Notes under the pieces: generated by a model
The model's database searches: none
What the model saw: only the letters and a program-made list of their open reading frames with translations
Told to the model about the DNA's origin: nothing
Shown: in pieces, positions 1,169-60,473 of the stretch
Layout of the letters: each line of letters begins with the position of its first letter
Position numbering within the stretch: position 1 is the stretch's first letter
Assembly (NCBI GenBank): GCA_964407715.1
Contig: CAYOWP010000007.1
Coordinates: 1-60,473 of the forward strand
Direction: 5' to 3'
DNA length: 60,473 nt
Source of the DNA: an uncultured archaeon
GTDB taxonomy: Archaea > EX4484-52 > JAADEF01
Position numbers and translations under genes: made by a program

Positions 1169-3829
1169 ATGCAAAGAATAAAGAGAGTAATGGCAGGTCT
1201 AGGTTCTGCCTTAATGGCAGGAGCTACATTAGCTGCTCCTGTGTTTGCAGGTAAAACAATAGGCGAGGCTTTTGGTGAGATGACACCTGCAAACACAGTT
1301 GTAGTCGTTGGAGAGAATGCAGCTGTGAGTGATGTTGTAGCAGCCATTGCTGTAGCCGCAAAATTAGGACAACACGGTGCTACTGCAACGGTAACAGGAG
1401 GTACTGCGGTAAGCGAAGTAAGCGGTGGTGTGAGCTTAGACGATCCAAGCGACAAGATTTATCTAGGAGATGAGATTAATAAAGTAAAAGATACATTAAC
1501 ATCTAAAGATTTGCCGAATATTTTAGCAAAAGGATCTTTCGAGGATGATGAGGGTGAAACATATGATTACAGTCAATACATTGAGATTGGAGATAATGTG
1601 GTGAAGTTTGTACAAGAAAATAGCGATGAAGATCCTGTAGTAGAGATAGATATGACGAGTGGAAGTGCGGGTTATACATATAAATATAAGGTAGATTTCA
1701 ACAAAGCAGTAAACTTCTTAAAGAAGGATTCTGATGGAAGAAATGTGATGGCAGGTAACACTTTAGAATTAGGAGGAATTTCCTTTACAATAAGTGCAGA
1801 GACAACTTCCGATAAGCTAGTGTTGTACAAAGCATCTGAGAGTATAACCTTAAATATGGGGGATGAGAAAACAGTTACTGTAGAAGGTAACGAGTATACT
1901 ATAAAAGTGTTAGGATTTGATACAGACAAAGATGAGGTTGTTTTAAGCGTAAATGGAGTGACGGATAGTGTAAAAGAAGGAAGATCTAGAACAATAGGAG
2001 GATTAGAGATTTATGCAAAAACAGTGACTGCATGGAATAATGGACAAGATGGAATTGCAGTATTACAAGTTGGTAGTGAGAAGATAACATTAGAGAATAA
2101 CCAACCAGTTATGGTTGGAGATGATGAGGATGAAATTGATGGAACAAATGTAGTATTTACTTGGGGCAATGGTTCAAGTAATATGTTCAGTGTTGCAGGG
2201 TTTGAGATTCAAGTAAGTTATCCAGATAGTGACAATGACTACATTGCAGCAGGAAGCGAATTTGTAGATCCTGTATTCGGAACATTTAAAGTTAAATTTG
2301 ATAGTGTTGTTCCAGATTTGAAAGATGAAAGTAGAGATGTGATAAAAGTAAAGAACGATGGAGATAGTAAGGGATATGTAGAATTTAAGGATAAAGATGG
2401 AGAGATAAGGAAAATATATTGGGCATATGATGGATCAGGTTTAAATGATGTAATATTAAGAGGATCGGATAGAGACAATGAAATTTTAGTGGTAGAAGGT
2501 GCAGAAGTAGCAGAGAAAAATATAACTTTTGTATCAACAGGAGATGAAAAATATACCCACTTATTGAAAGTTAAGGATATAAAATTAGATGATGAAGAAG
2601 GATATGTAGAATTTGAAGATGTGGTAACCGGAGAAACATATAAAACTGAGGAAGGAACTTTCCAAACAGCTGGAACAGATTCATTAGATTTGATTATTGA
2701 TGGAAAAACATACACAGTGGAATTGGTAGACGATAATTCAGATAGCGATAGTGATGGAATTGCACCAGAGATAACAGTCTCATATGATGCCGACTCAAAG
2801 ACTATTGTTTATCCAACAATTGAGTTGAACAATGGAGAAAAGTTGGCTGTTACTGATGTTGAGACAGGATTAAATCCCGGATTTGCCAATAGTGGAGATA
2901 GCGTAACTTATATCTTACCAACTGGAGAGTTGACTTTGACAGTAACAGCAGGAGATGGAACAAATTCAGATATAGTTGAAACCACAGACGGAAAGAATGT
3001 GTGTGGTGGTACAACTGTAACTGTAGGATCTATTACTTATTCCGTAACTGCCAACGGATGTGATACCGATAATGCGGTTGATGACATTACTCTTGATATA
3101 TCTATAAGTGGTGTATCAACACCAGCACTATTGCTCATTGAAGAAGAAAACGATGCACAAGATGATGCAGAAAATGCAATTGTGATATCTACCGATGACA
3201 GTGATGGAAATGATAAGATATCCTTTGATATAGATATGACAGATCCAAATGCATATGCATATGAAGGTTTAAGTACATCTAACGATGATATCTCAGCCTA
3301 CTTAGATACATATGGTACTTATGCAGAGAAAGATAGCAGTGATGACGACCACACTGTTGTAACTGTTTGGTATCCAGACACTCAGATGATAGCAAGAATA
3401 GCCGTAGGTCCAGAGCCAAAATTCGGTGCTGCTGTAAGTGGTGGAACTGCTGAGATATCATTCCCAGCTGTGAGTGCAAGCATGGCTAAATTGGATAGCG
3501 AGGTGTCAAGTGGAGATAAGAGCGGTTATAACTTAATCCTTGTTGGAGGTCCTGCAATAAACAGCTTAGTTGCTGAATTGGCAGATGCAGGTAAGACCTT
3601 AACATTAGACCAATGGAGAACAGATTATGTAAACAAGGCAATTGTACAAGTTGTTGAAGATGCATTTGCAAGCGGTAAAACCGCTTTGATCGTGGCAGGA
3701 TATGAGGCTGCAGACACCAGAAATGCAGCAGCTAAGTTGTTAAGCGGTGAGCTTGACAACAAAGAGGCTGCTGTAATTTCTGGTGACACTGTAGAAGATT
3801 TAACACTTGAAGCTAGCTCCTCTGAGTGA
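1169..3829 (+). CDS. S-layer protein (Methanococcales/DPANN type)
   Basis: 886 aa and very acidic. Signal peptide MQRIKRVMAGLGSALMAGATLAAPVFA, N-terminal VVVGENAAVSDVVAA and C-terminal NLILVGGPAINSLV...LIVAGYEAADT motifs. SD GAGGTGA at 1156-1162. Confidence 0.9.
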   Translation: MQRIKRVMAGLGSALMAGATLAAPVFAGKTIGEAFGEMTPANTVVVVGENAAVSDVVAAIAVAAKLGQHGATATVTGGTAVSEVSGGVSLDDPSDKIYLGDEINKVKDTLTSKDLPNILAKGSFEDDEGETYDYSQYIEIGDNVVKFVQENSDEDPVVEIDMTSGSAGYTYKYKVDFNKAVNFLKKDSDGRNVMAGNTLELGGISFTISAETTSDKLVLYKASESITLNMGDEKTVTVEGNEYTIKVLGFDTDKDEVVLSVNGVTDSVKEGRSRTIGGLEIYAKTVTAWNNGQDGIAVLQVGSEKITLENNQPVMVGDDEDEIDGTNVVFTWGNGSSNMFSVAGFEIQVSYPDSDNDYIAAGSEFVDPVFGTFKVKFDSVVPDLKDESRDVIKVKNDGDSKGYVEFKDKDGEIRKIYWAYDGSGLNDVILRGSDRDNEILVVEGAEVAEKNITFVSTGDEKYTHLLKVKDIKLDDEEGYVEFEDVVTGETYKTEEGTFQTAGTDSLDLIIDGKTYTVELVDDNSDSDSDGIAPEITVSYDADSKTIVYPTIELNNGEKLAVTDVETGLNPGFANSGDSVTYILPTGELTLTVTAGDGTNSDIVETTDGKNVCGGTTVTVGSITYSVTANGCDTDNAVDDITLDISISGVSTPALLLIEEENDAQDDAENAIVISTDDSDGNDKISFDIDMTDPNAYAYEGLSTSNDDISAYLDTYGTYAEKDSSDDDHTVVTVWYPDTQMIARIAVGPEPKFGAAVSGGTAEISFPAVSASMAKLDSEVSSGDKSGYNLILVGGPAINSLVAELADAGKTLTLDQWRTDYVNKAIVQVVEDAFASGKTALIVAGYEAADTRNAAAKLLSGELDNKEAAVISGDTVEDLTLEASSSE

Positions 3830-3860
3830 GGGGCTTAGCTTCTGATCTTTTTTCTTTTTT
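3809..3860 (+). terminator. Hairpin plus T-tract at the end of the S-layer gene
   Basis: GAAGCTAGCTCCTC-TGAGT-GAGGGGCTTAGCTTC followed by TTTTTTCTTTTTT. Confidence 0.7.
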
Positions 3861-3889
3861 ATATTTAAAGTACGAGGTCTAAAAGTATT

Positions 3890-4322
3890 ATTCTTTTAAT
3901 GTATCTCGGAAATTCTTGATAAATTGTGAAACATTTAAATATCTTTTAACTACTTATATTAATTATGTTGGAGGTTTCGTTGATAAGTAAGGAAGACATT
4001 ATCTCCATAAATAAAGAGATAACGAATATAACACATAATGTATTAAATTTTTCGTCATTGGATTATATAGAAAACAAGATGATTTATTTAAAGAGAAGAT
4101 TTAGAAATAAAAAGAAATCGTGATTTGTCTTTAAACAAATTAAAAAAAGTACTCAAAGAAAAGGTGATCCTAGATGAGTGAAAAAAAAATATATCAGGAG
4201 AGCGGTTTTGCATTCTAATGGAGAAATAACATATATAGAGGTTCCTTATGATAAGGTTTTGAAAGAAATTAGAAAACTATTGGAAGAGGATAAACTTCTT
4301 TTAGAGATTCTTGAGAAATTGT
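3890..4322 (+). repeat. Direct repeat copy 1 (about 430 bp; copy 2 at 7230-7717)
   Basis: Near-identical to 7230-7717 except for a 47-bp insertion plus 9-bp TSD in copy 2 and a few substitutions. Confidence 0.95.
3965..4122 (+). pseudogene. Fic/Doc-like toxin remnant (N-terminus only)
   Basis: MLEVSLISKEDIISINKEITNITHNVLNFSSLDYI resembles Doc/Fic N-termini. No HPFxxGNxR motif is present, and it stops early. Confidence 0.45.
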
Positions 4323-4324
4323 AG
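4178..4324 (+). CDS. Small hypothetical protein (48 aa), possible partner of the Fic remnant; duplicated in the second repeat copy
   Basis: Manual translation from GTG: MKKKYIRRAVLHSNGEITYIEVPYDKVLKEIRKLLEEDKLLLEILEKL*. A GGTGA SD lies upstream. Confidence 0.4.
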   Translation: MKKKYIRRAVLHSNGEITYIEVPYDKVLKEIRKLLEEDKLLLEILEKL

Positions 4325-4416
4325 ATTTTTATTGAAATTAATTATTAGACACTACTAAGATAAATCTGTGATGTTCCTAAAAACATTTAAATATATATAA
4401 GCCCTACTATTAGTAT

Positions 4417-4713
4417 ATGGTAAAAAATAATAGCGAGGATGTTATAGATATCATAATTAAAAAACTCAAGAAGAAAGGTGCCAAAAAAATAGAGATTTTT
4501 GGATCTTACGCTATCGGAGAAGAAAGAGAAGATAGTGATATAGATTTGATAGTAGAATTTAAGAATAATAGAACTCTATTAGAATTAATAGAAATAGAAC
4601 AAGAACTAAGTGAAGCTTTGAACAGAAAAATAGATATGCTTACACCTTCTTCAATCTCTCCTTTAATAATGGAAAAGATATCCAAAGAGAAAAAGGTGAT
4701 ATATAGTGAGTAA
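4417..4713 (+). CDS. Minimal nucleotidyltransferase (MNT) antitoxin
   Basis: FGSYAIGE..DSDIDL motif, 98 aa, overlaps the downstream HEPN gene. Confidence 0.9.
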   Translation: MVKNNSEDVIDIIIKKLKKKGAKKIEIFGSYAIGEEREDSDIDLIVEFKNNRTLLELIEIEQELSEALNRKIDMLTPSSISPLIMEKISKEKKVIYSE

Positions 4714-5038
4714 AAAGGATGATAAGGTTTATTTATATCATATTCTTGAATCTATAGAATGGATTGAAAGATATTTGGAATCTAGAACTTTTGAAGAATT
4801 TCAGAAGGATAAAATGCTACAAGATGCTGTTATAAGAGAACTAGAGGTAATAGGAGAGGCTGCAAAAAATATTTCAGAAGAACTCAAAAATAAATCTCCT
4901 AATATTCCGTGGAAAGCGATATCTGGTATGAGAGATAAGTTGATGCATCATTATTTTGGAGTAGATTTGTTTGCTGTATGGGAAACTGCTACTAAAGATA
5001 TTAAAAAATTAAAGAAATATATAATGAAATTGTTATAA
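4706..5038 (+). CDS. HEPN / DUF86 ribonuclease toxin
   Basis: LEVIGEAAK..IPW..ISGMRDKLMHHYFGVD (RX4H motif). Confidence 0.9.
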   Translation: MSKKDDKVYLYHILESIEWIERYLESRTFEEFQKDKMLQDAVIRELEVIGEAAKNISEELKNKSPNIPWKAISGMRDKLMHHYFGVDLFAVWETATKDIKKLKKYIMKLL

Positions 5039-5079
5039 GTAAAATGTCTTTGTATTCTGAAAAGGTTGACCTAAACTTG

Positions 5080-5130
5080 GCTTAAGCTCCTCTATGAGGA
5101 GCTTAAGCTTTGGTTTTTCTTTTTTATTTA
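5080..5130 (+). terminator. Perfect hairpin plus T-tract, paralogous to the S-layer terminator
   Basis: GCTTAAGCTCCTC-TAT-GAGGAGCTTAAGC followed by TTTGGTTTTTCTTTTTT. Confidence 0.7.
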
Positions 5131-5168
5131 AAAATTTTTTAAAATAGTGATACATACTCTGTATAAAT

Positions 5169-5699
5169 ATGATAGAAACTTTTGTTTCCAATTGGAAACT
5201 TTTGTTTCCAATATTTAAATATCCTACAAAAGGGTTAAGTTTAAGGGAAATTGCAAAGATGTCTTCTTTATCACATACTTATGTTAGAAAGAAAATTAAA
5301 CTTCTAAGTGATAAGAATATTGTTCTTATAGAAAAAAAACATAATGCTCATTATGTTTATGGAAATTATGAAAATGAAAAATTTATAGAGATGAAAAAAT
5401 TTTACAATCTTCTCTCCTTAATTAAACTTAAAGAATATTTAATAAAGGAATGTTCTCCTAGGGTTATTATTTTGTTTGGATCTTATAGTAGGGGTGAAGA
5501 TACAGAGAAGAGCGATATAGATCTATATATTGGAGATATTTCTGTGAGAATAGAGGATATTAATATGAAAAACTTTGAAGAAGAATTAAATAGAAGGATA
5601 GACTTGTTTACACAACCATTGAAAGAGTATCCTCAAGAATTAATAGAAAACATAATTAATGGTATTAAAATATATGGGTGGTTAGATATATGGTTTTAA
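5169..5699 (+). CDS. wHTH-MNT antitoxin (nucleotidyltransferase)
   Basis: N-terminal HTH (LSLREIAKMSSLSHTYV) and LFGSYSRGED..SDIDL. Confidence 0.88.
   Translation: MIETFVSNWKLLFPIFKYPTKGLSLREIAKMSSLSHTYVRKKIKLLSDKNIVLIEKKHNAHYVYGNYENEKFIEMKKFYNLLSLIKLKEYLIKECSPRVIILFGSYSRGEDTEKSDIDLYIGDISVRIEDINMKNFEEELNRRIDLFTQPLKEYPQELIENIINGIKIYGWLDIWF
5175..5212. promoter_or_regulatory. Tandem palindromic operator-like sites at the start of the wHTH-MNT gene
   Basis: GAAACTTTTGTTTCCAAT twice (5175, 5195). TTGGAAAC-TTTT-GTTTCCAA (5192-5211) is a perfect inverted repeat. Confidence 0.5.
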
Positions 5700-6091
5700 A
5701 ATTTTCTTTTTACCTTAAAAAAGGTTTTGTAAAGAAAGTTCAAAGAGATATAAATAGAAAAAATGCCTTGCTAAATATGGCAAGAAAAAGGATAGAGTAT
5801 TCTAAGAAATTAGATGATCCTAATTTTAAGTTAGAGTTTATTTATGAGGCTTTAATAGAGTACATAGAGGCGATAATGGCTGAAAAAGGATATAAGAGTT
5901 ATTCTCATGAGGCTGATATATCTTTCCTTAGAGAATTAGGGTTCAAGGAATCTGAAATAGCAAGAATGGATGAGATAAGAAGATTGAGACATAAGAGTAA
6001 ATACTATGGAGAAGTTATTAAAAAAGAAATTGTTGAAGATATTGAAAAATTTATTCTTTCTCTTATAGAGAAATTGGAAAGTTTAGTGTGA
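5678..6091 (+). CDS. HEPN-like toxin partner
   Basis: SHEA...RRLRHKSKYYG, coupled to the upstream MNT gene. Confidence 0.75.
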   Translation: MVRYMVLKFSFYLKKGFVKKVQRDINRKNALLNMARKRIEYSKKLDDPNFKLEFIYEALIEYIEAIMAEKGYKSYSHEADISFLRELGFKESEIARMDEIRRLRHKSKYYGEVIKKEIVEDIEKFILSLIEKLESLV

Positions 6092-7209: not shown

Positions 7210-7717
7210 TTAAGCGGTGAGCTTGACAAATTCTTTTAATGTATATCGGAAATTCTTGGGCATTTTAACACGCAAATAGCACTTGGAGAATTATTGGACA
7301 ATGCCAAATTCTTGAGAAATTGTGAAACATTTAAATATCTTTTAACACTTATATTAATTATGTTGGAGGTTTCGTTGATAAGTAAGGAAGACATTATCTC
7401 CATAAATAAAGAGATAACGAATATAACACATAATGTATTAAATTTTTCGTCATTGGATTATATAGAAAACAAGATGATTTATTTAAAGAGAAGATTTAGA
7501 AATAAAAAGAAATCGTGATTTGTCTTTAAACAAATTAAAAAAAGTACTCAAAGAAAAGGTGATCCTAGATGAGTGAAAAAAAAATATATCAGGAGAGCGG
7601 TTTTGCATTCTAATGGAGAAATAACATATATAGAGGTTCCTTATGATAAGGTTTTGAAAGAAATTAGAAAGCTATTAGAAGAGGATAAACTTCTTTTAGA
7701 GATTCTTGAGAAATTGT
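7210..7717 (+). repeat. Direct repeat copy 2, preceded by a 20-bp exact copy of the S-layer gene 3' region
   Basis: 7210-7229 TTAAGCGGTGAGCTTGACAA equals 3740-3759, and 7230-7717 matches 3890-4322. Confidence 0.92.
7259..7305. mobile_element. MITE A, a 47-bp deletion derivative with a perfect 9-bp TSD
   Basis: GGCATT...GAGAATTATTGGACAATGCC flanked by AAATTCTTG (7250-7258 and 7306-7314). The paralogous site at 3910-3918 has a single AAATTCTTG and no insert. Confidence 0.9.
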
Positions 7718-9868: not shown

Positions 9869-10124
9869 GGCATTGTCCAATAATTCTCCATTTGTTAAGC
9901 GGAAAAGTAACCTTTTAAAGAAGCGCATTAAAGTAGCGAACCTTAAAGATGACATGCTACAAAACCTGTAGTAATAGCGATTTCTTCCCGTTAACAATTT
10001 TTATCCATTCAAAATAATTGGTTAACAGGAAGCATAGCCCTATTCAAAAGGGTTAAACCGCTCTCATGCGCTTCTTTGAGAGGTTATGTTTCCGCTTAAC
10101 AATAAAGAGTTATTGGGTAATGCC
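9869..10124. mobile_element. MITE B (256 bp)
   Basis: TIRs GGCATTGTCCAATAATTCT / AGAGTTATTGGGTAATGCC. TSD TTTGGTATG / TTTGGCATG. Close reverse complement of 54162-54412. Confidence 0.9.
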
Positions 10125-10146: not shown

Positions 10147-10766
10147 TGTTAACGCAAAATATCACAGCATGCTAACCGCTTAGAAAGTTTATCTGCTCAC
10201 GAACTACTTTGAAAAAAGGTTAGCTGCTTACTATCACTTCATAGAGGTTAGCTGCTGTAATACGCAAAATGAAAAAGGTATGTTTTCCCTTAACCATTTT
10301 AAAAATTGGTTAAGGGGAAGATATTGCTATCACAGACGTATCGCGGCATCGTAACCGCCTTTTAAAAAGATTAACTGCTCTAACGTAATTTCCTGGTATG
10401 GAATGTTTTCCCTTAACCATTTTTATCATTGGTTAATAAGAGGAAATCGCCAATACAAAGGTATTGAAGTGTGTTAACCTTTTCTTGAAGGTTACCTGCT
10501 TCATACACGCGTATAAAAGGTTAGCTGCTGCAAAAATGCTCTCGTAAAGGTTATGTTTTCCCTTAACCATTTATATGGTTTCTCAATAACGCATGCTTTT
10601 GCTTAACCATTTTCAAAAACAAAAAAAGTGTTAACTGGAAGCATAGCCTATAGAGAAAACGTGTTGTGGTATGGTACTACTTGAAAGAGGTTTAGAAGCA
10701 GCTAACCTTGAAAAAGGTTAACTGCTGTGATGTGGTCAATCAAAGGGTCATGTTTCACGTTAACCA
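10147..10766. repeat. Palindromic-unit tandem array 1 (4 units plus 1 collapsed)
   Basis: Units bounded by (TG)GTTAA...TTAACCA at about 10147-10296, 10307-10419, 10430-10569 and 10629-10766, with internal AGGTTAGCTGC motifs. Confidence 0.85.
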
Positions 10767-12757: not shown

Positions 12758-13005
12758 GGTATTGTCCAATAATTCTCCATTTGTTAAGCGGAAAAGTAAC
12801 CTCTTAAAAAGCACATTGGAGCAGCAAACCTTATGGAGCTAATGCAATTGTAGGAGCAAATTTTTTCGTTAACAAACCATCATCAAAAAATTATTGGACA
12901 ATTTGTTAATGGAAAGTTAGCCTATTCAAAGGGTTAACTGCTCTCATGCGCTTGTTTGAGAGGTTAAGTTTCCGCTTAACAAATAGAGAATTATTGGACA
13001 AAGCC
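12758..13005. mobile_element. MITE C (248 bp)
   Basis: GGTATTGTCCAATAATTCT ... AGAATTATTGGACAAAGCC with perfect 9-bp TSD CTCTTTTAA (12749-12757 and 13006-13014). Near-identical to 22345-22591. Confidence 0.93.
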
Positions 13006-19776: not shown

Positions 19777-19972
19777 GGCTTTGTCCAATAATTCGATTCT
19801 TTATTGTTAACCGGAAATTTAACGCGCAAATAGCACTTATAGCGGTTTAACCCTTCATAGCGATTATGAAGCAAGTAACCTTTCAACAATGTTAACCTGC
19901 TCCAAAAACCCTTTGAATAAGACTATGCTTCCCGTTAACAAAATTTTTCAAACCACATTATTGGACAATGCC
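19777..19972. mobile_element. MITE D (196 bp)
   Basis: GGCTTTGTCCAATAATT ... ATTATTGGACAATGCC. TSD TCTCAGAA / TCTCACAA. Lies 15 bp downstream of tRNA-Val. Confidence 0.88.
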
Positions 19973-22344: not shown

Positions 22345-22591
22345 AGTATTGTCCAATAAGTCTCTATTTGTTAAGCGGAAAAGTAACCTCTTAAAAAGCA
22401 CATTGGAGCAGCAAACCTTATTGAGCTAATGCGATTGTAAGAACGAGTTTTCTCGTTAACAAACCATCATCAAAAAATTATTAGACAATTTGTTAATGGA
22501 AAGTTAGCCTATTCAAAGGGTTAACTGCTCTAATACGCTTCTTTAAGAGGTTACTTTTCCGCTTAACAATAAGGAATTATTGGGCAATGCT
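22345..22591. mobile_element. MITE E (247 bp)
   Basis: AGTATTGTCCAATAA ... TTATTGGGCAATGCT. TSD GACATGAAG / TACATGAAA. The left TSD copy contains the hef stop codon. Confidence 0.88.
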
Positions 22592-22647
22592 TACATGAAA
22601 TCATTGAAGGTGAATTTTATAAAATTTTGATAGAAATTTAATTTATT

Positions 22648-25060: not shown

Positions 25061-25621
25061 TTAAGGTGAAGTATTATTAGATGTGCTTAGGATTTCCATC
25101 ATTTTCTCCTTTAAATTACCAACCTCTACATTAGTTGATTGCTGAGGTAAGGTTAATCTCTTTAATCTTTTATCTATACTTACCAACAGATCTGCAATGT
25201 TCTCATTTGTTTCTTTCATCTCTTCACTCATTTTTTCTAATGCCTCTTTTAAAGGAAGTATTGTCTCTTTGACTATTTCTTTAGCGATATTTTCTTCTGT
25301 ATCTTCTCTTGCAGCCTCTTTTACAAGAGTCACAAATTCATCAAACTTATCATATAATCTTTCCATTTTACCTATCATTACTGCTATATCTTCACGTAAT
25401 GCATCGTTGGATCTTATTAATCCCTCTACAGTTTTCTGATTTTGAAGCATTAAATCTATAAATTTTTGTAAGAATTTTTCCATCATTAATATAGCCTCTT
25501 TTTCATCAGAAATTCTTTTTGATTTATTTAATAATACTCCTTCTCTTTCATCAGGATATCCATAATCATCTGAAATTTCAACCTCTTCCTCAATTTTTGG
25601 CATTCTAACACCCAATTTCAC
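25061..25621 (-). CDS. Hypothetical coiled-coil protein
   Basis: 186 aa, helical and E/K-rich. Confidence 0.7.
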   Translation of the reverse strand: MKLGVRMPKIEEEVEISDDYGYPDEREGVLLNKSKRISDEKEAILMMEKFLQKFIDLMLQNQKTVEGLIRSNDALREDIAVMIGKMERLYDKFDEFVTLVKEAAREDTEENIAKEIVKETILPLKEALEKMSEEMKETNENIADLLVSIDKRLKRLTLPQQSTNVEVGNLKEKMMEILSTSNNTSP

Positions 25622-25749: not shown

Positions 25750-26567
25750 TGGTTAAGGAGGAGAATACCTTATCGACAGCACATCAGAGCAGCTAACCTT
25801 TGAGAGCGGTTTGAAGGCAGCTATCCTTTGATAGAGGTTACCATGATGCGATGTGCTTATGATGGCGATTTTTTCCCGTTAACCATTTTTTATTTTTTAA
25901 AGGATATGGTTAACGGGAAGCATACCATATCAATAGCACATTAAAGCAGTTAACCTTTTAAAGCGGTTGCCATTCTCCAAACCCTTTGGTAAAGCGATTT
26001 TCTCCCGTTAACCATATCTCAAAATAAAAATATGGTTAAGGGGAAGATGTCCTCTTAATGAGGCACATTGCAGCAGCTAACCTCATGAAAGCGTTTTGAA
26101 AGCAGCTAACCTTTTTAGAAAAGGTTAGCATGCTACAACTCCTTTGGTAAAGCGATTTCCTCCCGTTAACCATCTTGTATTTTAAATAAGAATGGTTAAG
26201 GGGAATATACCACTCAAGCAACCACATTAGAGCAGCTAACCTTTCTAAGAGAGCACCATGCTGCAAGACTTTTGGAGTAGCGATCTCCTCCCGTTAACCA
26301 TTTTTTATTTTTAAAAATATGGTTAAGGGGAAGATGTCCTCTTAATGAGGCACATTGCAGCAGCTAACCTTTGATAAAGGTTACCATACTGCAAAACCTT
26401 GTGTAATAGCAATTTCTTCCCGTTAACCAATTTTTATTTTTGAAATGGTTAAGGGGAAGAATAACCTTATCAACAGCATATCAGAGCAGCTACCCTATTG
26501 CAAAGGTTTGTAAGCAGTTAACTTTAAAGATGGATTACCATGCTCTAAGATCTTTGTGTAACCGTTA
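25750..26567. repeat. Palindromic-unit tandem array 2 (6 units)
   Basis: Units at 25750-25885, 25907-26014, 26033-26172, 26193-26300, 26320-26429 and 26446-~26567. Each reads TGGTTAAsGGGA...AGCAGCTAACCT...CATG...GCGAT..TCCCGTTAACCA. Spacers are 16-21 bp and AT-rich. Confidence 0.93.
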
Positions 26568-26621
26568 TTATCTCTCATTGAAAAACCTATATTAATTCCT
26601 TTATATAAAAATTAAATATTT

Positions 26622-26909
26622 ATGAAAAAAAGAAAGAAAATGGAAAGAAAGGGAAAATCGAAAGATGTTGATTTGCTTAATAAGATAATTAGGATTCTTA
26701 AATATCAACCTGGAGGATTATGGATACGTGAGATAGCACGTCAAACATCTTCACATCCAGAAAGTATAAGGAGAATTATATCAAAATATGATGGAATTTT
26801 TGAGGAATATGCTGATCTCACACAATATGGAATAAACCTAAAGTTCGTTAGGTTAAAAAAAGATTATCAAAAAGAATATGCGAAAATTGTTATGAATGTT
26901 GTGAAATAA
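26622..26909 (+). CDS. Small winged helix-turn-helix protein
   Basis: IIRILK..PGGLWIREIARQTSSHPESIRRII is an HTH signature. Confidence 0.75.
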   Translation: MKKRKKMERKGKSKDVDLLNKIIRILKYQPGGLWIREIARQTSSHPESIRRIISKYDGIFEEYADLTQYGINLKFVRLKKDYQKEYAKIVMNVVK

Positions 26910-33453: not shown

Positions 33454-34001
33454 TTGCCAACTGAAAGAAATCTCTCTCGTTCTCCATAGCAGCATGATAA
33501 TCGGTTTAGAAGGTTAGATGCCTATGAAACGCTTAGAAGAGTTACCTGCTCCAATACGCCAAATGAGGAGGTTATTCCTCCACTTAACCATTTTTTAAAA
33601 TAAAAATGGTTAACGGGAGAATATCGCTATTACCACAAGGTTTGCAGCATGCTAACCCAAGTAAAAGGTTGGCCGCTCCCATGTGCTTTTGTAATTGGTA
33701 TGTCTCCCGTTAACCAATTATTTTGAATAAAAAATGGTTAACGGGAGGAAATCGCATTCCAAAAGTTCTTGAGCATGGTAACCATCCTAAAAGGTTAGCT
33801 GCTTCATATCCTCTGCCCGAAGGTTAGCTGCTCTAATATCATTTCTCGATATGGTATTTTTCTCCTTAACCAATTTTTTAAAATATATTTTGTTAACGCG
33901 AGAAAACTGCCTTTTCAATCACATTACAGAGTGTTAACCTTCTCTTAAATGATAGATGCTATGATGCACGTGATTAAGAGAGTTCATTTCCACCTTAAAC
34001 A
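33454..34001. repeat. Palindromic-unit tandem array 3 (4 units, opposite polarity to array 2)
   Basis: Units at about 33454-33590, 33607-33716, 33735-33872 and 33891-34001, between the divergent rgy and cysS genes. Confidence 0.88.
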
Positions 34002-39576: not shown

Positions 39577-40674
39577 TTACTGGATTTTACAGCATCTTAC
39601 ATAGCATGTAGCTGCTAAATCATCTGCACCACATTTCCAACCATTTCCTACAGGATAAGACTGAACCCAATATAGTTTATCTGAGCCATGAATGGCCATT
39701 CCTCCACCTGTCATTACAGTTCCTGCTGGACAATAAACGGTACACGTTCCATCAGCTGGTGCACTACAAGTATAAGTAGAGCAGGATAAACTCCCACCAC
39801 CAACCTCACTCCACTTACTCTTACATCCATCACTTAAACATAATCTTCCAGCTTTGATTGTACCATCTCTTGTCATATATGCAGTTAAACTACCTCCACT
39901 TCCAACTCCTACAGTTCCTTCAGCATAAACATCCCATGTATGGATTCCACCTCCCCAACCGCTAGGATATCCACTATCAGGATCAAATCCATAAGTCCCT
40001 AATCTTCCACTAACCTTAACAGATCCACCACTAATCGTTAATTTATCGGTTGGTGAGCTTGTACCTATACCAACCTTACCATTAACATATAAGTTTCCAA
40101 CATTCTTTATATCTCTCCCTCCAGCATCATTTCCTCTACTTAAAACCTGCGATAAAGTTTGCAATTCATTAGTAGGATCAGCATCAGCATCATTTACTTG
40201 ATCAACTCCACATCTTATTCTTCCACTACTATCTGTATATAACTTACCATTACAACTAACTAAAGATGATATTTTCACATCTCCACTAACATCCAACTTT
40301 GCTGTTGGTGAAGCTGTTCCTATTCCAACTCTTCCAGTGCTAACATCCACAAATAACTTACCAGAACCGATGTTCAAGTTACCTGATGCGATAATAGCGC
40401 CAGCAGAGTTTAATCCGCCTACATTGATTGTGTGCGTAGTGGTGGCTCCATTGTTTGTTATGTCTTGTAATGTGTCTTCTATGATTCCAGCATCTATCCT
40501 TCCATTATTATCTGAGTCAATGGTTGTTAAATCACTTTTAGTTTTTGCAATTTGCGAGAGATAATGCCATGGTCTTGTTATGTCAACTTTTACAGCTAAG
40601 GCTAATGAATAAAAGAGCACGAGGATTATCAAGACCTGGATTCCTATTGATATGAGTTTTTGTGAGCGTTTCAT
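39577..40674 (-). CDS. Secreted fibre/adhesin-like protein with Cys-rich tip domain
   Basis: N-terminal signal/TM segment, two G(R/K)VGIGT.SPT.KL.(V/I)SG repeats, and C-terminal CPAGTVMTGGG..SYP..GWKC..CYVRCC. Confidence 0.75.
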   Translation of the reverse strand: MKRSQKLISIGIQVLIILVLFYSLALAVKVDITRPWHYLSQIAKTKSDLTTIDSDNNGRIDAGIIEDTLQDITNNGATTTHTINVGGLNSAGAIIASGNLNIGSGKLFVDVSTGRVGIGTASPTAKLDVSGDVKISSLVSCNGKLYTDSSGRIRCGVDQVNDADADPTNELQTLSQVLSRGNDAGGRDIKNVGNLYVNGKVGIGTSSPTDKLTISGGSVKVSGRLGTYGFDPDSGYPSGWGGGIHTWDVYAEGTVGVGSGGSLTAYMTRDGTIKAGRLCLSDGCKSKWSEVGGGSLSCSTYTCSAPADGTCTVYCPAGTVMTGGGMAIHGSDKLYWVQSYPVGNGWKCGADDLAATCYVRCCKIQ

Positions 40675-43339: not shown

Positions 43340-43969
43340 GGTTAACGCGAGAATGCTATTCAAAGAATAGGAATTTTTGAGAGTTAGCATGCGAAGATAT
43401 CGCTATCACTGAGGTATGGAAAGAAAGAGAAGGATGCAAATCTCTTTTTAAGGTTAGCTGCTTCAAAAACGCTCATAAAGGTTAGCTGTTGTTGGACTGT
43501 CTCTTACGAGGTTAGACTTCCCGTTAACCATTTTTTATTTTTTAAGGAATATGGTTAACGCGAGGAATAGCCATTCCAAAGGTTCTTGAGCATGGTACCT
43601 CTTGAAGGGGTTAGCTGCTTTTGAACCTCATCAAAAGGTTAGCTGCTGTGATGTGCTATTGATAAGGTATGGTTCCCGTTAACCATTCTTTATTTTTTAA
43701 AAATAATTGGTTAACGCGAGGAAATCGCTTTCCAAAGGTTCTGAAGCATGGTACCTCTTGAAGGGGTTAGCTGCTTTTGAACCTCATCAAAAGGTTAGCT
43801 GCTGTGATGTGCTATTGATGAGGTATGGTTCCCGTTAACCATTCTTTATTTTTAAAAATAATTGGTTAACGGGAGAATATCGGTAACATAAAGGGTTTTC
43901 AGCATGCTAATCGCTTAGAAAGGTTAGCTGCTCTAATCTGCTATTGATGAGGTACACTTCCAGTTAACA
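43340..43969. repeat. Palindromic-unit tandem array 4 (4 units)
   Basis: Units at 43340-43530, 43552-43685, 43708-43841 and 43863-43969. Units 2 and 3 are nearly identical with a 156-bp period. Confidence 0.92.
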
Positions 43970-44000
43970 AACTATTTCAAAAATTTAATCAATAATATTT

Positions 44001-48156: not shown

Positions 48157-48285
48157 TTTCCGGTAACAAAATTTTTAAAATTGGTTATCTGGAAGAAGTT
48201 GCTTTTTTCAAGTATATAAAAGGAATGATACCTTATTTTGTGGGTTAGATGCTTTTTACCACTATAAAAAGCTAGTTCTCAAGTT
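48157..48285. repeat. Decayed palindromic-unit remnant
   Basis: TTTTCCGGTAACAA-AT spacer-TTGGTTATCTGGAAGA is a degenerate junction, followed by GGTTAGATGC. Confidence 0.55.
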
Positions 48286-52445: not shown

Positions 52446-52799
52446 GATATTGTCCAATAATTCTTATCAACAAAAAATTTGTTAACGGAAAACATATCCT
52501 TTTTAAAGAGCGACATCGGAGCAGTTAAGCTTCTAAGGCGTTTAGGAAGCAACTAAACCTTAATGAAGGCTAACATGCTGTAAGACCTCTGCAAGAGCGA
52601 ATTTCTCCCGTTAACAAACCATTAATAAATTTTGTTAACTGGAAACACAACCTTTTTAAAGAGTACATTAGAGCAGTAAACCTTATAAAGCATCTATATG
52701 TAGAATACTCCAAGGCAGGTTAGCATGCTGTAGGACCTTTGGAGAATTGAATTTCTCCCGTTAACAAATTTTATTAAAAGAGAATTATTGGACAAAATT
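52446..52799. mobile_element. MITE F, two full tandem palindromic units between eroded TIRs
   Basis: ATTGTCCAATAATTCT ... AGAATTATTGGACAA with units at 52480-52616 and 52633-52766. The terminal GG/CC and the TSD are not recognisable. Confidence 0.82.
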
Positions 52800-53985: not shown

Positions 53986-54105
53986 TGTTGGCAGCGTCGC
54001 CCTGTTCCCACCCCCGCCGGGGCAGTACTTAGGGCATCGCTGGCGGGCTTAACTTCCGGGTTCGGGATGGGTCCGGGTGTTTCCCCGCCGCTATGGCCGC
54101 CAACA
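53986..54105 (-). rRNA. rrf: 5S rRNA (stand-alone)
   Basis: GC-rich 120 nt. The reverse complement reads GGCCATAGCGGCGGGGAAACACCCGGACCCATCCCGAACCCGGAAGTTAAGCC...AAGTACTG, with terminal helix TGTTGGC/GCCAACA. Confidence 0.96.
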
Positions 54106-54161: not shown

Positions 54162-54412
54162 GGCATTGCACAATAATTCTTTATTGTTAAGCGGAAACAT
54201 ATCCTCTCAAAGAAGCGCATGAGAGCAGTTAACCCTTTTGAATAGGGCTATGCTTCCCGTTAACAAATTATTTTGAATAGATAAAAATTGTTAACCGGAA
54301 AAAATCGCTATTACTACAGGTTTTGTAGCATGTCATCTTTAAGATTCGCTACTTTAATGCGCTTCTTTAAAAGGATGCTCAGCTTAACAATAAAGAATTA
54401 TTGGACAACGCC
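54162..54412. mobile_element. MITE G (251 bp), left arm of a composite around relE-antitoxin
   Basis: GGCATTGCACAATAATTCT ... AGAATTATTGGACAACGCC, flanked by TCAGTTCT on the left and AACATCAAA on the right. Confidence 0.92.
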
Positions 54413-54924: not shown

Positions 54925-55078
54925 GGCATTGCACAAAAATTCTTTATTGTTAAGCAGAAATTTAACGCGCAAATAGCACTTATAACGGTAATCGCATTAG
55001 CTCTACAAGATTCGCTACTTTAATGCGCTTCTTTAAAAGGATGCTCAGCTTAACAATAAAGAATTATTGGACAATGCC
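54925..55078. mobile_element. MITE H (154 bp), right arm of the composite
   Basis: GGCATTGCACAAAAATTCT ... AGAATTATTGGACAATGCC, flanked by AACATCAAA(G) on the left and TCAGTTCT on the right. The last ~70 bp are essentially identical to MITE G. Confidence 0.92.
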
Positions 55079-55149
55079 TCAGTTCTTGGGCTTTGTATCT
55101 TTGTATAATAGCACTTTTATCAAATAAAACTTAATTATCATCTGGATTA

Positions 55150-55223
55150 CGAGCCCGGTGGGATTTGAACCCACGACAACCCGGTCCGAAGCCGGGCACT
55201 CTACCAAGCTGAGTTACGGGCCC
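55150..55223 (-). tRNA. tRNA-Arg(TCG)
   Basis: Reverse-complement cloverleaf with anticodon arm CCCGG-CTTCGGA-CCGGG. Confidence 0.96.
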
Positions 55224-55281
55224 ATATTTACAAATTTAATTTTTGGATTTATAAAAATATTTCCACTTCTTTATAAGATTA

Positions 55282-55416
55282 GGCATTGTTCGATAATCCT
55301 TTATTGTTAAGCGGAAACATAACCTCTCACAGAAGCACATGAGAGCAGTTAACCCCTTGAATAGAGCTCTGATTCCCGTTAACCAAATTTCTCAAAATAT
55401 ATTATTGGACAATGCT
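55282..55416. mobile_element. MITE I (135 bp)
   Basis: GGCATTGTTCGATAATCCT ... ATTATTGGACAATGCT with flanking direct repeat TTATAAGATTA / TTGTAAGATTA. Confidence 0.87.
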
Positions 55417-55457
55417 TTGTAAGATTACTTTTTTAAATAATTCTTTCTTTCATTATA

Positions 55458-60324: not shown

Positions 60325-60473
60325 TGGTTAACTGGAAGCATATGAAAGCAATTAATCTCAAAAAAGGTTACCATGCTGAAAACCTTGTGGTAATAAGGAT
60401 TTGTGCGCGTTAACCAGATTTTATTTTAAATAAAATGGTTAAGGGGAGATGTAACCTCTTAAAAGGCACATTA
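60325..60473. repeat. Palindromic-unit tandem array 5 (runs off the window edge)
   Basis: TGGTTAACTGGAAG...AGGTTACCATGCT...CGTTAACCA, an AT spacer, then TGGTTAAGGGGAGATGT. Confidence 0.85.

Follow-up and report, generated by a model that had tools for sequence, protein, structure and literature searches.

Tandem arrays of palindromic units, probably a MITE/REPIN-like family, in the compact genome of an uncultured archaeon

Among described elements, the closest to the repeats reported here are repetitive extragenic palindromes (REPs) with their composite forms, miniature transposable elements with inverted repeats (MITEs), and BOX elements. Bacterial interspersed mosaic elements (BIMEs) and REP doublets forming hairpins (REPINs), which are mobilized by REP-associated Y1 tyrosine transposases (RAYTs), are extragenic imperfect palindromes with long hairpins that are present in hundreds of copies per genome. 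MITEs are small, contain no open reading frame (ORF), carry terminal inverted repeats, lie between genes, and are confined to narrow taxa. BOX elements of Streptococcus pneumoniae are modular, in the order boxA-boxB-boxC, with the middle module in variable number. BIMEs are described as clusters with alternating inverted repeats (PMC2817692). According to a census of archaeal MITEs (PMC11602168), DPANN genomes are the most MITE-dense among archaea (146 and 105 per Mb), and the MITE load of the densest genomes is 1.23% of the genome. Here, we analyzed a 60,473-nt stretch of DNA (the window) from an uncultured organism, which its rRNA genes show to be an archaeon and which we infer from genome size to be a DPANN member. 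The window carries tandem arrays of palindromic units, among them six head-to-tail units at 25750-26572 that start with TGGTTAAsGGGAA and end with TCCCGTTAACCA. On balance, these arrays are probably a MITE/REPIN-like selfish non-coding repeat family, found so far only in this organism.

The arrays proved to be part of a large family. The 12-mer TCCCGTTAACCA, with at most one mismatch, occurred at 30 sites in the window compared to 0.03 expected, and none of 100 shuffled sequences had as many; across the 898,521-bp, 16-contig genome, this end motif was found at 446 sites. Pairing of left and right ends gave 219 complete motif-bounded units, which sum to 26,326 bp (2.9% of the genome) and whose lengths fell into two sharp classes, a short class of 105-114 bp (S, about 110 bp) and a long class of 133-141 bp (L, about 138 bp). 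An nhmmer search of the genome with profiles made from 84 short and 75 long units returned 366 non-overlapping matches covering 39,104 bp. These form 127 to 141 loci, depending on the gap allowed, and 64 of the arrays have at least two full units. With the spacers and a sister subfamily included, the loci amount to 43,708 bp, or 4.9% of the genome, and to about 31% of the non-coding DNA as left by crude ORF calls (ATG starts only, 70-amino-acid minimum, greedy selection; 84.6% coding). All arrays lie outside these ORF calls. The load is higher than the 1.23% given for the densest genomes in the census (PMC11602168), a rough comparison because the methods differ.

A reading of the DNA made earlier from its letters alone (the sequence-only reading) had named arrays at 25750, 10147, 33454, 43340, and 60325 and a relic at 48157. 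All of these were recovered by the profile search, and its claim of a genuine element family was borne out. An assembly artefact was ruled out because three contigs from a second DNA sample (X2) tile positions 25768-26739 with zero differences and because an independent metagenome contig of 7743 bp (L052) bears a seven-unit array. Most of the other alignments of contigs, from the four runs compared, were cross-mapping of other units and revealed no strain-level empty site. Many contigs of the assembly start or end inside arrays (C1 126425-126651, C3 92270-92315, C5 76897-77409, C7 60325-60473, C8 50636-50910, C9 2-482, C12 88-810, and C14 160-472). This means that it is the repeats that break the assembly. 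Strong pressure to shed DNA is generally assumed for small, symbiont-like archaeal genomes, and here about 1 base in 20, and about one-third of the non-coding DNA, belongs to one palindromic family. If purely selfish, the family would show to what extent a minimal genome can be invaded by mobile DNA and would explain the assembly breaks at arrays. If a host protein or a new hairpin-specific enzyme reads its conserved boxes, the family would represent a new archaeal system.

Each unit of these arrays (type A) is a long imperfect palindrome, or hairpin, of 110 bp in its short form. The outer stem consists of the 14-bp inverted repeats TGGTTAAsGGGAAG and CTTCCCGTTAACCA, and the inner stem, 11 bp with one bulged A, has the arms AGCAGCTAACC and GGTTAGCATGCT; a first stretch of about 26 nt and a second of about 24 nt lie between the stems. 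Long units of 138 bp have 28 extra profile columns, which are a second copy of the inner half-hairpin. A short unit contains the heptamer GGTTARC at four places and a long one at six; the heptamers form inverted pairs with a lattice spacing of about 65 bp. The fixed order of motifs described in the sequence-only reading agreed with the consensus of the 84 short and 75 long units (terminal motifs, AGCAGCTAACC, 28-bp module, GGTTAGCATGCT, GCGAT), but the stretches that it took for about 20 variable bp are not free to vary. The spacers between units are 8-30 bp long (mode, 18-21 bp) and contain no ORF. An A-run borders each unit on the left and a T-run on the right, and neighbors meet in the AT spacer. 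Read on the plus strand, T-run then A-run was the order in 49 of 53 spacers of plus-plus arrays and in 63 of 63 spacers of minus-minus arrays. Since this order is independent of polarity, the spacers are palindromic and inverted half-units alternate along the array. Throughout the family, one half of a unit differs from the other, which gives the unit a polarity, and by profile most arrays keep one polarity, as had been noted for the window.

Conservation within the unit was uneven. Departures from consensus were rare in the terminal heptamers TGGTTAA (26 of 1246, about 2%) and TTAACCA (18 of 1239, about 1.5%), although the conservation of these heptamers is inflated by the choice of units by their ends. 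The inner stem, which is unaffected by this choice, departed at 231 of 2147 positions in its arm (about 11%), compared to 1541 of 4564 (about 34%) in the first variable stretch and 1432 of 4332 (about 33%) in the second. Conserved motif islands without uniform decay, as described earlier, were therefore seen family-wide. The motif islands have been retained through selection of some kind, because the median nearest relative of a unit is only 82% identical. This selection acts either on the element, in that only intact copies spawn new ones, or through the host, and the data cannot separate the two.

The profile placed the following type-A features in the window.

25750-26572, plus strand: type-A array of six units, namely 25750-25885 (L, 136 bp), 25907-26014 (S, 108 bp), 26033-26172 (L, 140 bp), 26193-26300 (S, 108 bp), 26320-26429 (S, 110 bp), and 26446-26572 (L, 3′-truncated), all of plus polarity; identical in the X2 contigs over the part that they tile
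10156-10766, minus strand: type-A array, partly degenerate, with five matches, at 10156-10213, 10213-10296, 10307-10419, and 10430-10569 (minus) and at 10630-10766 (plus)
33459-33997, minus strand: type-A array of four units (L, S, L, S)
43390-43970, minus strand: type-A array of four units (L, L, L, S)
60325-60473, plus strand: start of a type-A array, cut by the contig end (profile match 60329-60416)
48182-48275, minus strand: weak unit relic (profile positions 46-138, 19 bits)

The array at 25750-26572 is flanked by divergent ORFs at 25061-25621 (minus strand) and 26622-26909 (plus strand). A 76-amino-acid ORF at 26036-26266 (minus strand), wholly within the array, is almost certainly spurious.

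The sequence-only reading had the family right but missed its sister subfamily, type B, from which the placement among mobile elements comes. Type B accounts for about 45 loci among the profile matches. In these elements, inverted copies of the 13-mer ATTGTCCAATAAT cap an interior of one or two units that have TTGTTAA...TTAACAA ends and often form an inverted dimer about 240 bp long. The inner units are matched by the A-unit profile and align end to end with A units. With at most one mismatch, the 13-mer was found at 134 genome sites, almost always outside ORFs. Among 78 candidate end pairs, many of which are wrong pairings with inner copies, 14 had perfect 9-bp target-site duplications and another 15 had flanking 9-mers alike at 8 of 9 positions, compared to 0.4% and 1%, respectively, in 2000 random flank pairings. 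Because these duplications are far above the null, type B is a genuine MITE, which makes the entire family mobile now or in the past. The elements with perfect duplications were 110 to 365 bp long, so that forms with one to three inner modules each moved or grew in place. One nested insertion, at C13:20756-21069, has a type-B element within the terminal 13-mer of another, from which the duplicated 9-mer CATTGTCTA is taken. Conservation of the type-B end stops sharply at ...ATTATTGGACAAT GCC. Beyond it, there is a TATA-like box at about 20 nt and a start codon another 25-30 nt or so further on. Type-B copies thus mark promoters: at 46 of 114 outer ends, a same-direction ORF starts 35-80 nt away, with a mode of 50-59 nt.

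The following type-B and related features were found in the window; strand is given where one was assigned.

9869-10124: type-B MITE adjoining the array at 10156-10766, with inverted ends of the GGCATTGTCCAATAAT type around two inner units, likewise inverted, of the TTGTTAA type; flanking 9-mers TTTGGTATG and TTTGGCATG, 8/9 alike by eye; profile matches at 9894-10100
12758-13005: type-B MITE, inverted dimer of inner units, with the perfect 9-bp target-site duplication CTCTTTTAA
19777-19971: type-B MITE directly downstream of tRNA-Val; flanking 9-mers CTCTCAGAA and CTCTCACAA, 8/9 alike
22346-22592: type-B MITE, inverted dimer; flanking 9-mers 7/9 alike
52446-52799, plus strand: two long TTGTTAA/TTAACAA-ended units in direct tandem inside inverted 13-mers; flanks 6/9 alike, no clear duplication; intermediate between types A and B
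54162-54412: type-B element upstream of the 5S rRNA gene (53986-54104, minus strand); flanks 5/9 alike, no duplication detected
55282-55418: short type-B element upstream of tRNA-Arg (55149-55224, minus strand); flanking 9-mers 8/9 alike
7290-7302, 9872-9884, 12761-13002, 19780-19969, 22348-22588, 52449-52796, 54397-54409, 55063-55075, and 55401-55413: sites of the 13-mer ATTGTCCAATAAT

Compared with the systems introduced above, the arrays resemble several and coincide with none. Like REPs, BIMEs, and REPINs, they are extragenic palindromes clustered in alternating orientation, with long hairpins and a high copy number, and like REPINs, type A has no detected target-site duplication. They differ in that the unit is 110-138 bp with two or three stems, compared to 20-60 bp for a REP. 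In addition, the Pseudomonas genome used for comparison has mostly single REPINs with nearly identical tandem copies, whereas here arrays dominate and neighbors are 72% identical. REPINs and BIMEs are bacterial and this host is archaeal, and no Y1/RAYT gene (PF01797) was found by a search that did match control genomes, although absence is not shown by an assembly that is 92% complete. The statement in the sequence-only reading that the pattern does not fit REP/BIME is therefore correct only in part: the palindromic spacers give a BIME/REPIN layout, but size, sequence, and the failure to find a RAYT set the arrays apart. As in MITEs, the elements are small, intergenic, without an ORF, and of narrow taxonomic range, with terminal inverted repeats both in type A (the 14-bp ends of the 219 full units) and in type B (the GGCATTGTCCAATAAT ends, 134 copies of the 13-mer), and type B has 9-bp duplications. 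Unlike in MITEs, type A has no detectable duplication and occurs in same-polarity tandem arrays, and no parent insertion sequence with matching ends was found in the assembly. The variable middle module of BOX elements has a likeness in the 28-bp module of type A and in the one to three inner units of type B, but there is no sequence relation, and BOX elements, to our knowledge, form no multi-unit palindromic arrays of this kind.

[quoted passage not shown] Here the whole period is homologous between units (68-72% identity), there are no unique spacers, and the number of loci is at least 60. The genome has a true CRISPR at about C4:76560-77880, with 20 identical 30-bp repeats and unique spacers of 36-39 bp. 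Its cas genes are at C4:66585-76311, and the only Cas1 match (C4:75076-75891) lies next to this CRISPR and not next to the arrays. The exclusion of CRISPR in the sequence-only reading thus held on two grounds, unit homology and a separate, normal CRISPR-Cas locus. None of the CRISPR spacers matched the units or the genome's own repeats. Two other known systems were considered and rejected. Integron attC arrays, whose core GTTAAC presumably resembles and which have gene cassettes between the sites and a single platform next to an integron integrase, do not agree with spacers of 8-30 bp lacking an ORF, with 64 arrays, and with the only tyrosine recombinase lying more than 3.6 kb away (C1:72424-72912; nearest array, C1:76556). 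Palindromic elements derived from IS200/IS605 were rejected because there was no match to PF01797 and only sub-threshold matches to PF07282 (TnpB; two matches at 16-17 bits, below the cut-off of 26.3 bits).

The relationships among A units point to how the arrays may have formed. Contig C9, a mirror of C8, and units outside both size classes were left out of these statistics, leaving 187 units. Mean identity was 72.4% for adjacent units, 71.4% within arrays, and 67.7% between arrays. For 137 of 158 units, the nearest relative was in another array; for the other 21, it was in the same array, compared to 1.6% by chance. Of 109 neighboring pairs, only 4 had nearest outside relatives that were also neighbors (null mean, 1.1; null maximum, 6). 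Since nearest relatives are in other arrays and multi-unit blocks are not shared, the units appear to spread singly. In the MITE/REPIN-like interpretation, a trans-acting enzyme would read the conserved ends and inner boxes and spread A units one at a time, new units landing next to existing ones with matching polarity; this enzyme would be what requires the conserved islands. The outcome would be arrays of 2-8 units where the compact genome tolerates them, mainly between divergent promoters. Units may then be lost, and occasionally doubled, via slippage or unequal exchange between the 12- to 14-bp direct repeats of successive left ends. Subfamily B, for its part, moved by cut-or-copy transposition leaving the 9-bp duplications. 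That arrays turn over is seen from L052, which differs from contig C11 of the assembly in its array although the flanks are 99% identical on both sides. Units 1-4 are 99-100% identical and unit 5 only 89%, the last unit is short in L052 (without the 28-bp module) and long in C11, and L052 carries one extra whole unit, the best genome relative of which is 82% identical. The 12-bp direct repeat TGGTTAACGGGA stands at both edges of the extra unit, a trace expected of slippage or unequal exchange. Local duplication also occurs, as in the 92%-identical tandem pair at 43518-43882. An origin from half-units by rolling-hairpin amplification was rejected, because the halves differ family-wide and match each other no better than the halves of other units. 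Among partial matches, no clear nested insertion into a type-A target was seen; the one split unit, on C9, is due to a scaffold gap (N).

The family was not found in 40 relatives searched by BLAST or in a covariance-model scan of 100 relatives, 66 of which are at least 90% complete. Species-representative genomes gave only 15 single chance-level sites in unrelated bacteria, and viral contigs gave no unit and 65 single matches of the type-B end 16-mer, which are put down to chance. The nearest available genome, from the same genus, has 35-67% protein identity and no synteny at the array locus. Nine loci of relatives showed no tandem repeat with a period of at least 40 bp, too little sequence to deny the relatives arrays of their own. 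Full-text literature searches found no published description of this repeat architecture, in agreement with the sequence-only reading, which knew of none; the supplementary tables of PMC11602168 may already list the MITEs of this genome.

Several results weigh against a selfish MITE/REPIN-like family. The search of the 92%-complete assembly for transposases found none of PF01609, PF00872, PF01797, PF03400, PF00665, PF12762, and PF01548, and the multi-copy ORF families (AAA ATPases, NosD-like, nucleotidyltransferase, and secreted Cys-rich proteins) included none that was transposase-like. Pairs of the 13-mer 1-1.5 kb apart, where a parent insertion sequence was sought, were never flanked by a duplication. 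Type-A target-site duplications showed no excess over a composition-matched null, for single units (k = 4-10) or for array flanks, in a test weakened by AT-rich low-complexity flanks. It is also unusual for MITEs to occur chiefly as tandem arrays of one polarity. Of 46 arrays with at least three full units, 41 lack the 13-mer on both flanks, so that A arrays are not simply expanded B elements. The copies are old, judged by their nearest relatives, yet the inner stem departs three times less than the variable stretches, which could equally mean host selection. Finally, among the 59 arrays that have an ORF on each side, 28 occupy divergent gaps (12 convergent, 19 co-directional), compared to 150 of 750 intergenic regions overall, or 20% (152 convergent, 448 co-directional), and this could reflect function rather than tolerance alone.

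Some of these points are what would be expected of host-functional protein-binding arrays. In that case, a dimeric protein would read the GGTTARC heptamers and the palindromic TATA-like spacers would bind TBP/TFB, and the arrays, possibly co-opted mobile DNA, would work between divergent promoters as architectural elements, as insulators, or as reservoirs of factors. What is kept of the motifs is their sequence, without compensatory change, the inner stem shows its conservation although it was not used in picking units, and about 5% of a streamlined genome is retained. The spacers also score like real promoters on a TATA matrix learnt from 245 upstream regions of the genome (median, 6.24 compared to 5.34 for promoter windows and 4.11 for shuffled spacers), but this matrix is poorly informative at 32% G+C, and 73% of shuffled spacers pass its threshold. 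Tolerance of insertion in a compact genome predicts the same divergent enrichment, no candidate protein was identified, and unit number and content differ between the 99%-identical populations represented by L052 and the assembly. Not having been found in the 100 relatives, such a function would have to be very young or peculiar to the lineage. We therefore regard host-functional binding arrays as unlikely, though worth keeping in view. Somewhat less probable still is a combination of the two, in which a hairpin-reading enzyme of an unrecognized kind moved A units, inserting them beside copies in the same polarity without duplication, and the arrays have since been co-opted as promoter-proximal binding arrays, with TATA-like spacers and GGTTARC boxes, between divergent genes. 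A different origin of the arrays, mainly by local tandem duplication as in minisatellites, with spread secondary through rare segmental moves or ectopic conversion, would fit the recent tandem duplicate formed by units 43552-43685 and 43708-43841 (43518-43882, period of 156 bp, 92% matches), the excess of nearest relatives in the same array, the whole-unit indel between 12-bp direct repeats, and the shared polarity. We give it little credence, because most nearest relatives are in other arrays, the identity of adjacent units (72%) barely exceeds that between arrays (68%), blocks of several units are rarely common to loci, and at least 64 separate arrays need a means of seeding new sites.

A role as RNA, one of the options raised in the sequence-only reading, is unlikely. 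If the arrays encoded a structured non-coding RNA of about 110-140 nt in tandem gene copies, transcripts would start from the TATA-like spacer and end at the T-run or be cut from a long precursor. Every unit does have a TATA-like box before it and a T-run after it, single units fold better than shuffles (z of -2.7 to -6.1 in 9 of 10 folds), and many units have GCGA, GTGA, or GGGA between short complementary tetramers (seen by eye, uncounted). Covariation was examined in 73 short units, from the window and 25 other loci, out of 106 distinct short units. In both stems, 86.3% of cells were paired compared to 86.0% after shuffling, a level reached by 79 of 500 shuffles, and the covariation score of 0.065 (0.062 in shuffles) was reached by 121 of 500. 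The absence of compensatory change fits a requirement at the level of sequence and not of base pairing. The variable stretches paired no better within the same unit than between different units (-7.59 and -7.83 kcal/mol, respectively), and the two strands folded about equally (-38.2 and -39.5 kcal/mol). RNAalifold gave no pairs on a program-made alignment and, on trimmed alignments, only the two palindromic stems, on both strands. A cloverleaf formed from local hairpins, which in the first stretch resembled covariation by eye, was rejected; the first stretch reached only -2.37 kcal/mol compared to -1.64 when shuffled (reverse strand), and the second showed no excess. Mismatches on the profile strand were more often A.C (243) than G.U (131), which would favor pairing on the opposite strand, but the tetraloop and G.U hints favor opposite strands. 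Unit polarity was independent of the strand of the neighboring genes. No Rfam family matched the arrays at gathering score, and 23 loose matches were generic hairpins far below it. Tandem RNA genes are thus improbable, and the option of selection for structure gained no support from these comparisons. The MITE/REPIN-like family remains the interpretation that we prefer.

Further observations concern other parts of the assembly. The protein gene at 39577-40674 (minus strand) in the window has four paralogues, on C1, C5, C10, and C11, and together they form a five-member family of 365-480 amino acids with a hydrophobic segment at the N terminus, repeats rich in Gly, and a Cys-rich C terminus, and without a Pfam or NCBIfam match. 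Contigs C8 and C9 carry mirror-image identical arrays with their flanking ORFs (C8:15679-16625 and C9:34493-35439; C8:39917-40596 and C9:10522-11201), which are either a large inverted duplication or one region assembled twice. On L052, the 16S (738-2199) and 23S (2760-5726) rRNA genes are on the same strand with the 23S gene first, an unusual order, and immediately upstream of the 23S gene is the seven-unit array. This contig links the starts of C1 and C11 through rRNA genes that are missing from the assembly.

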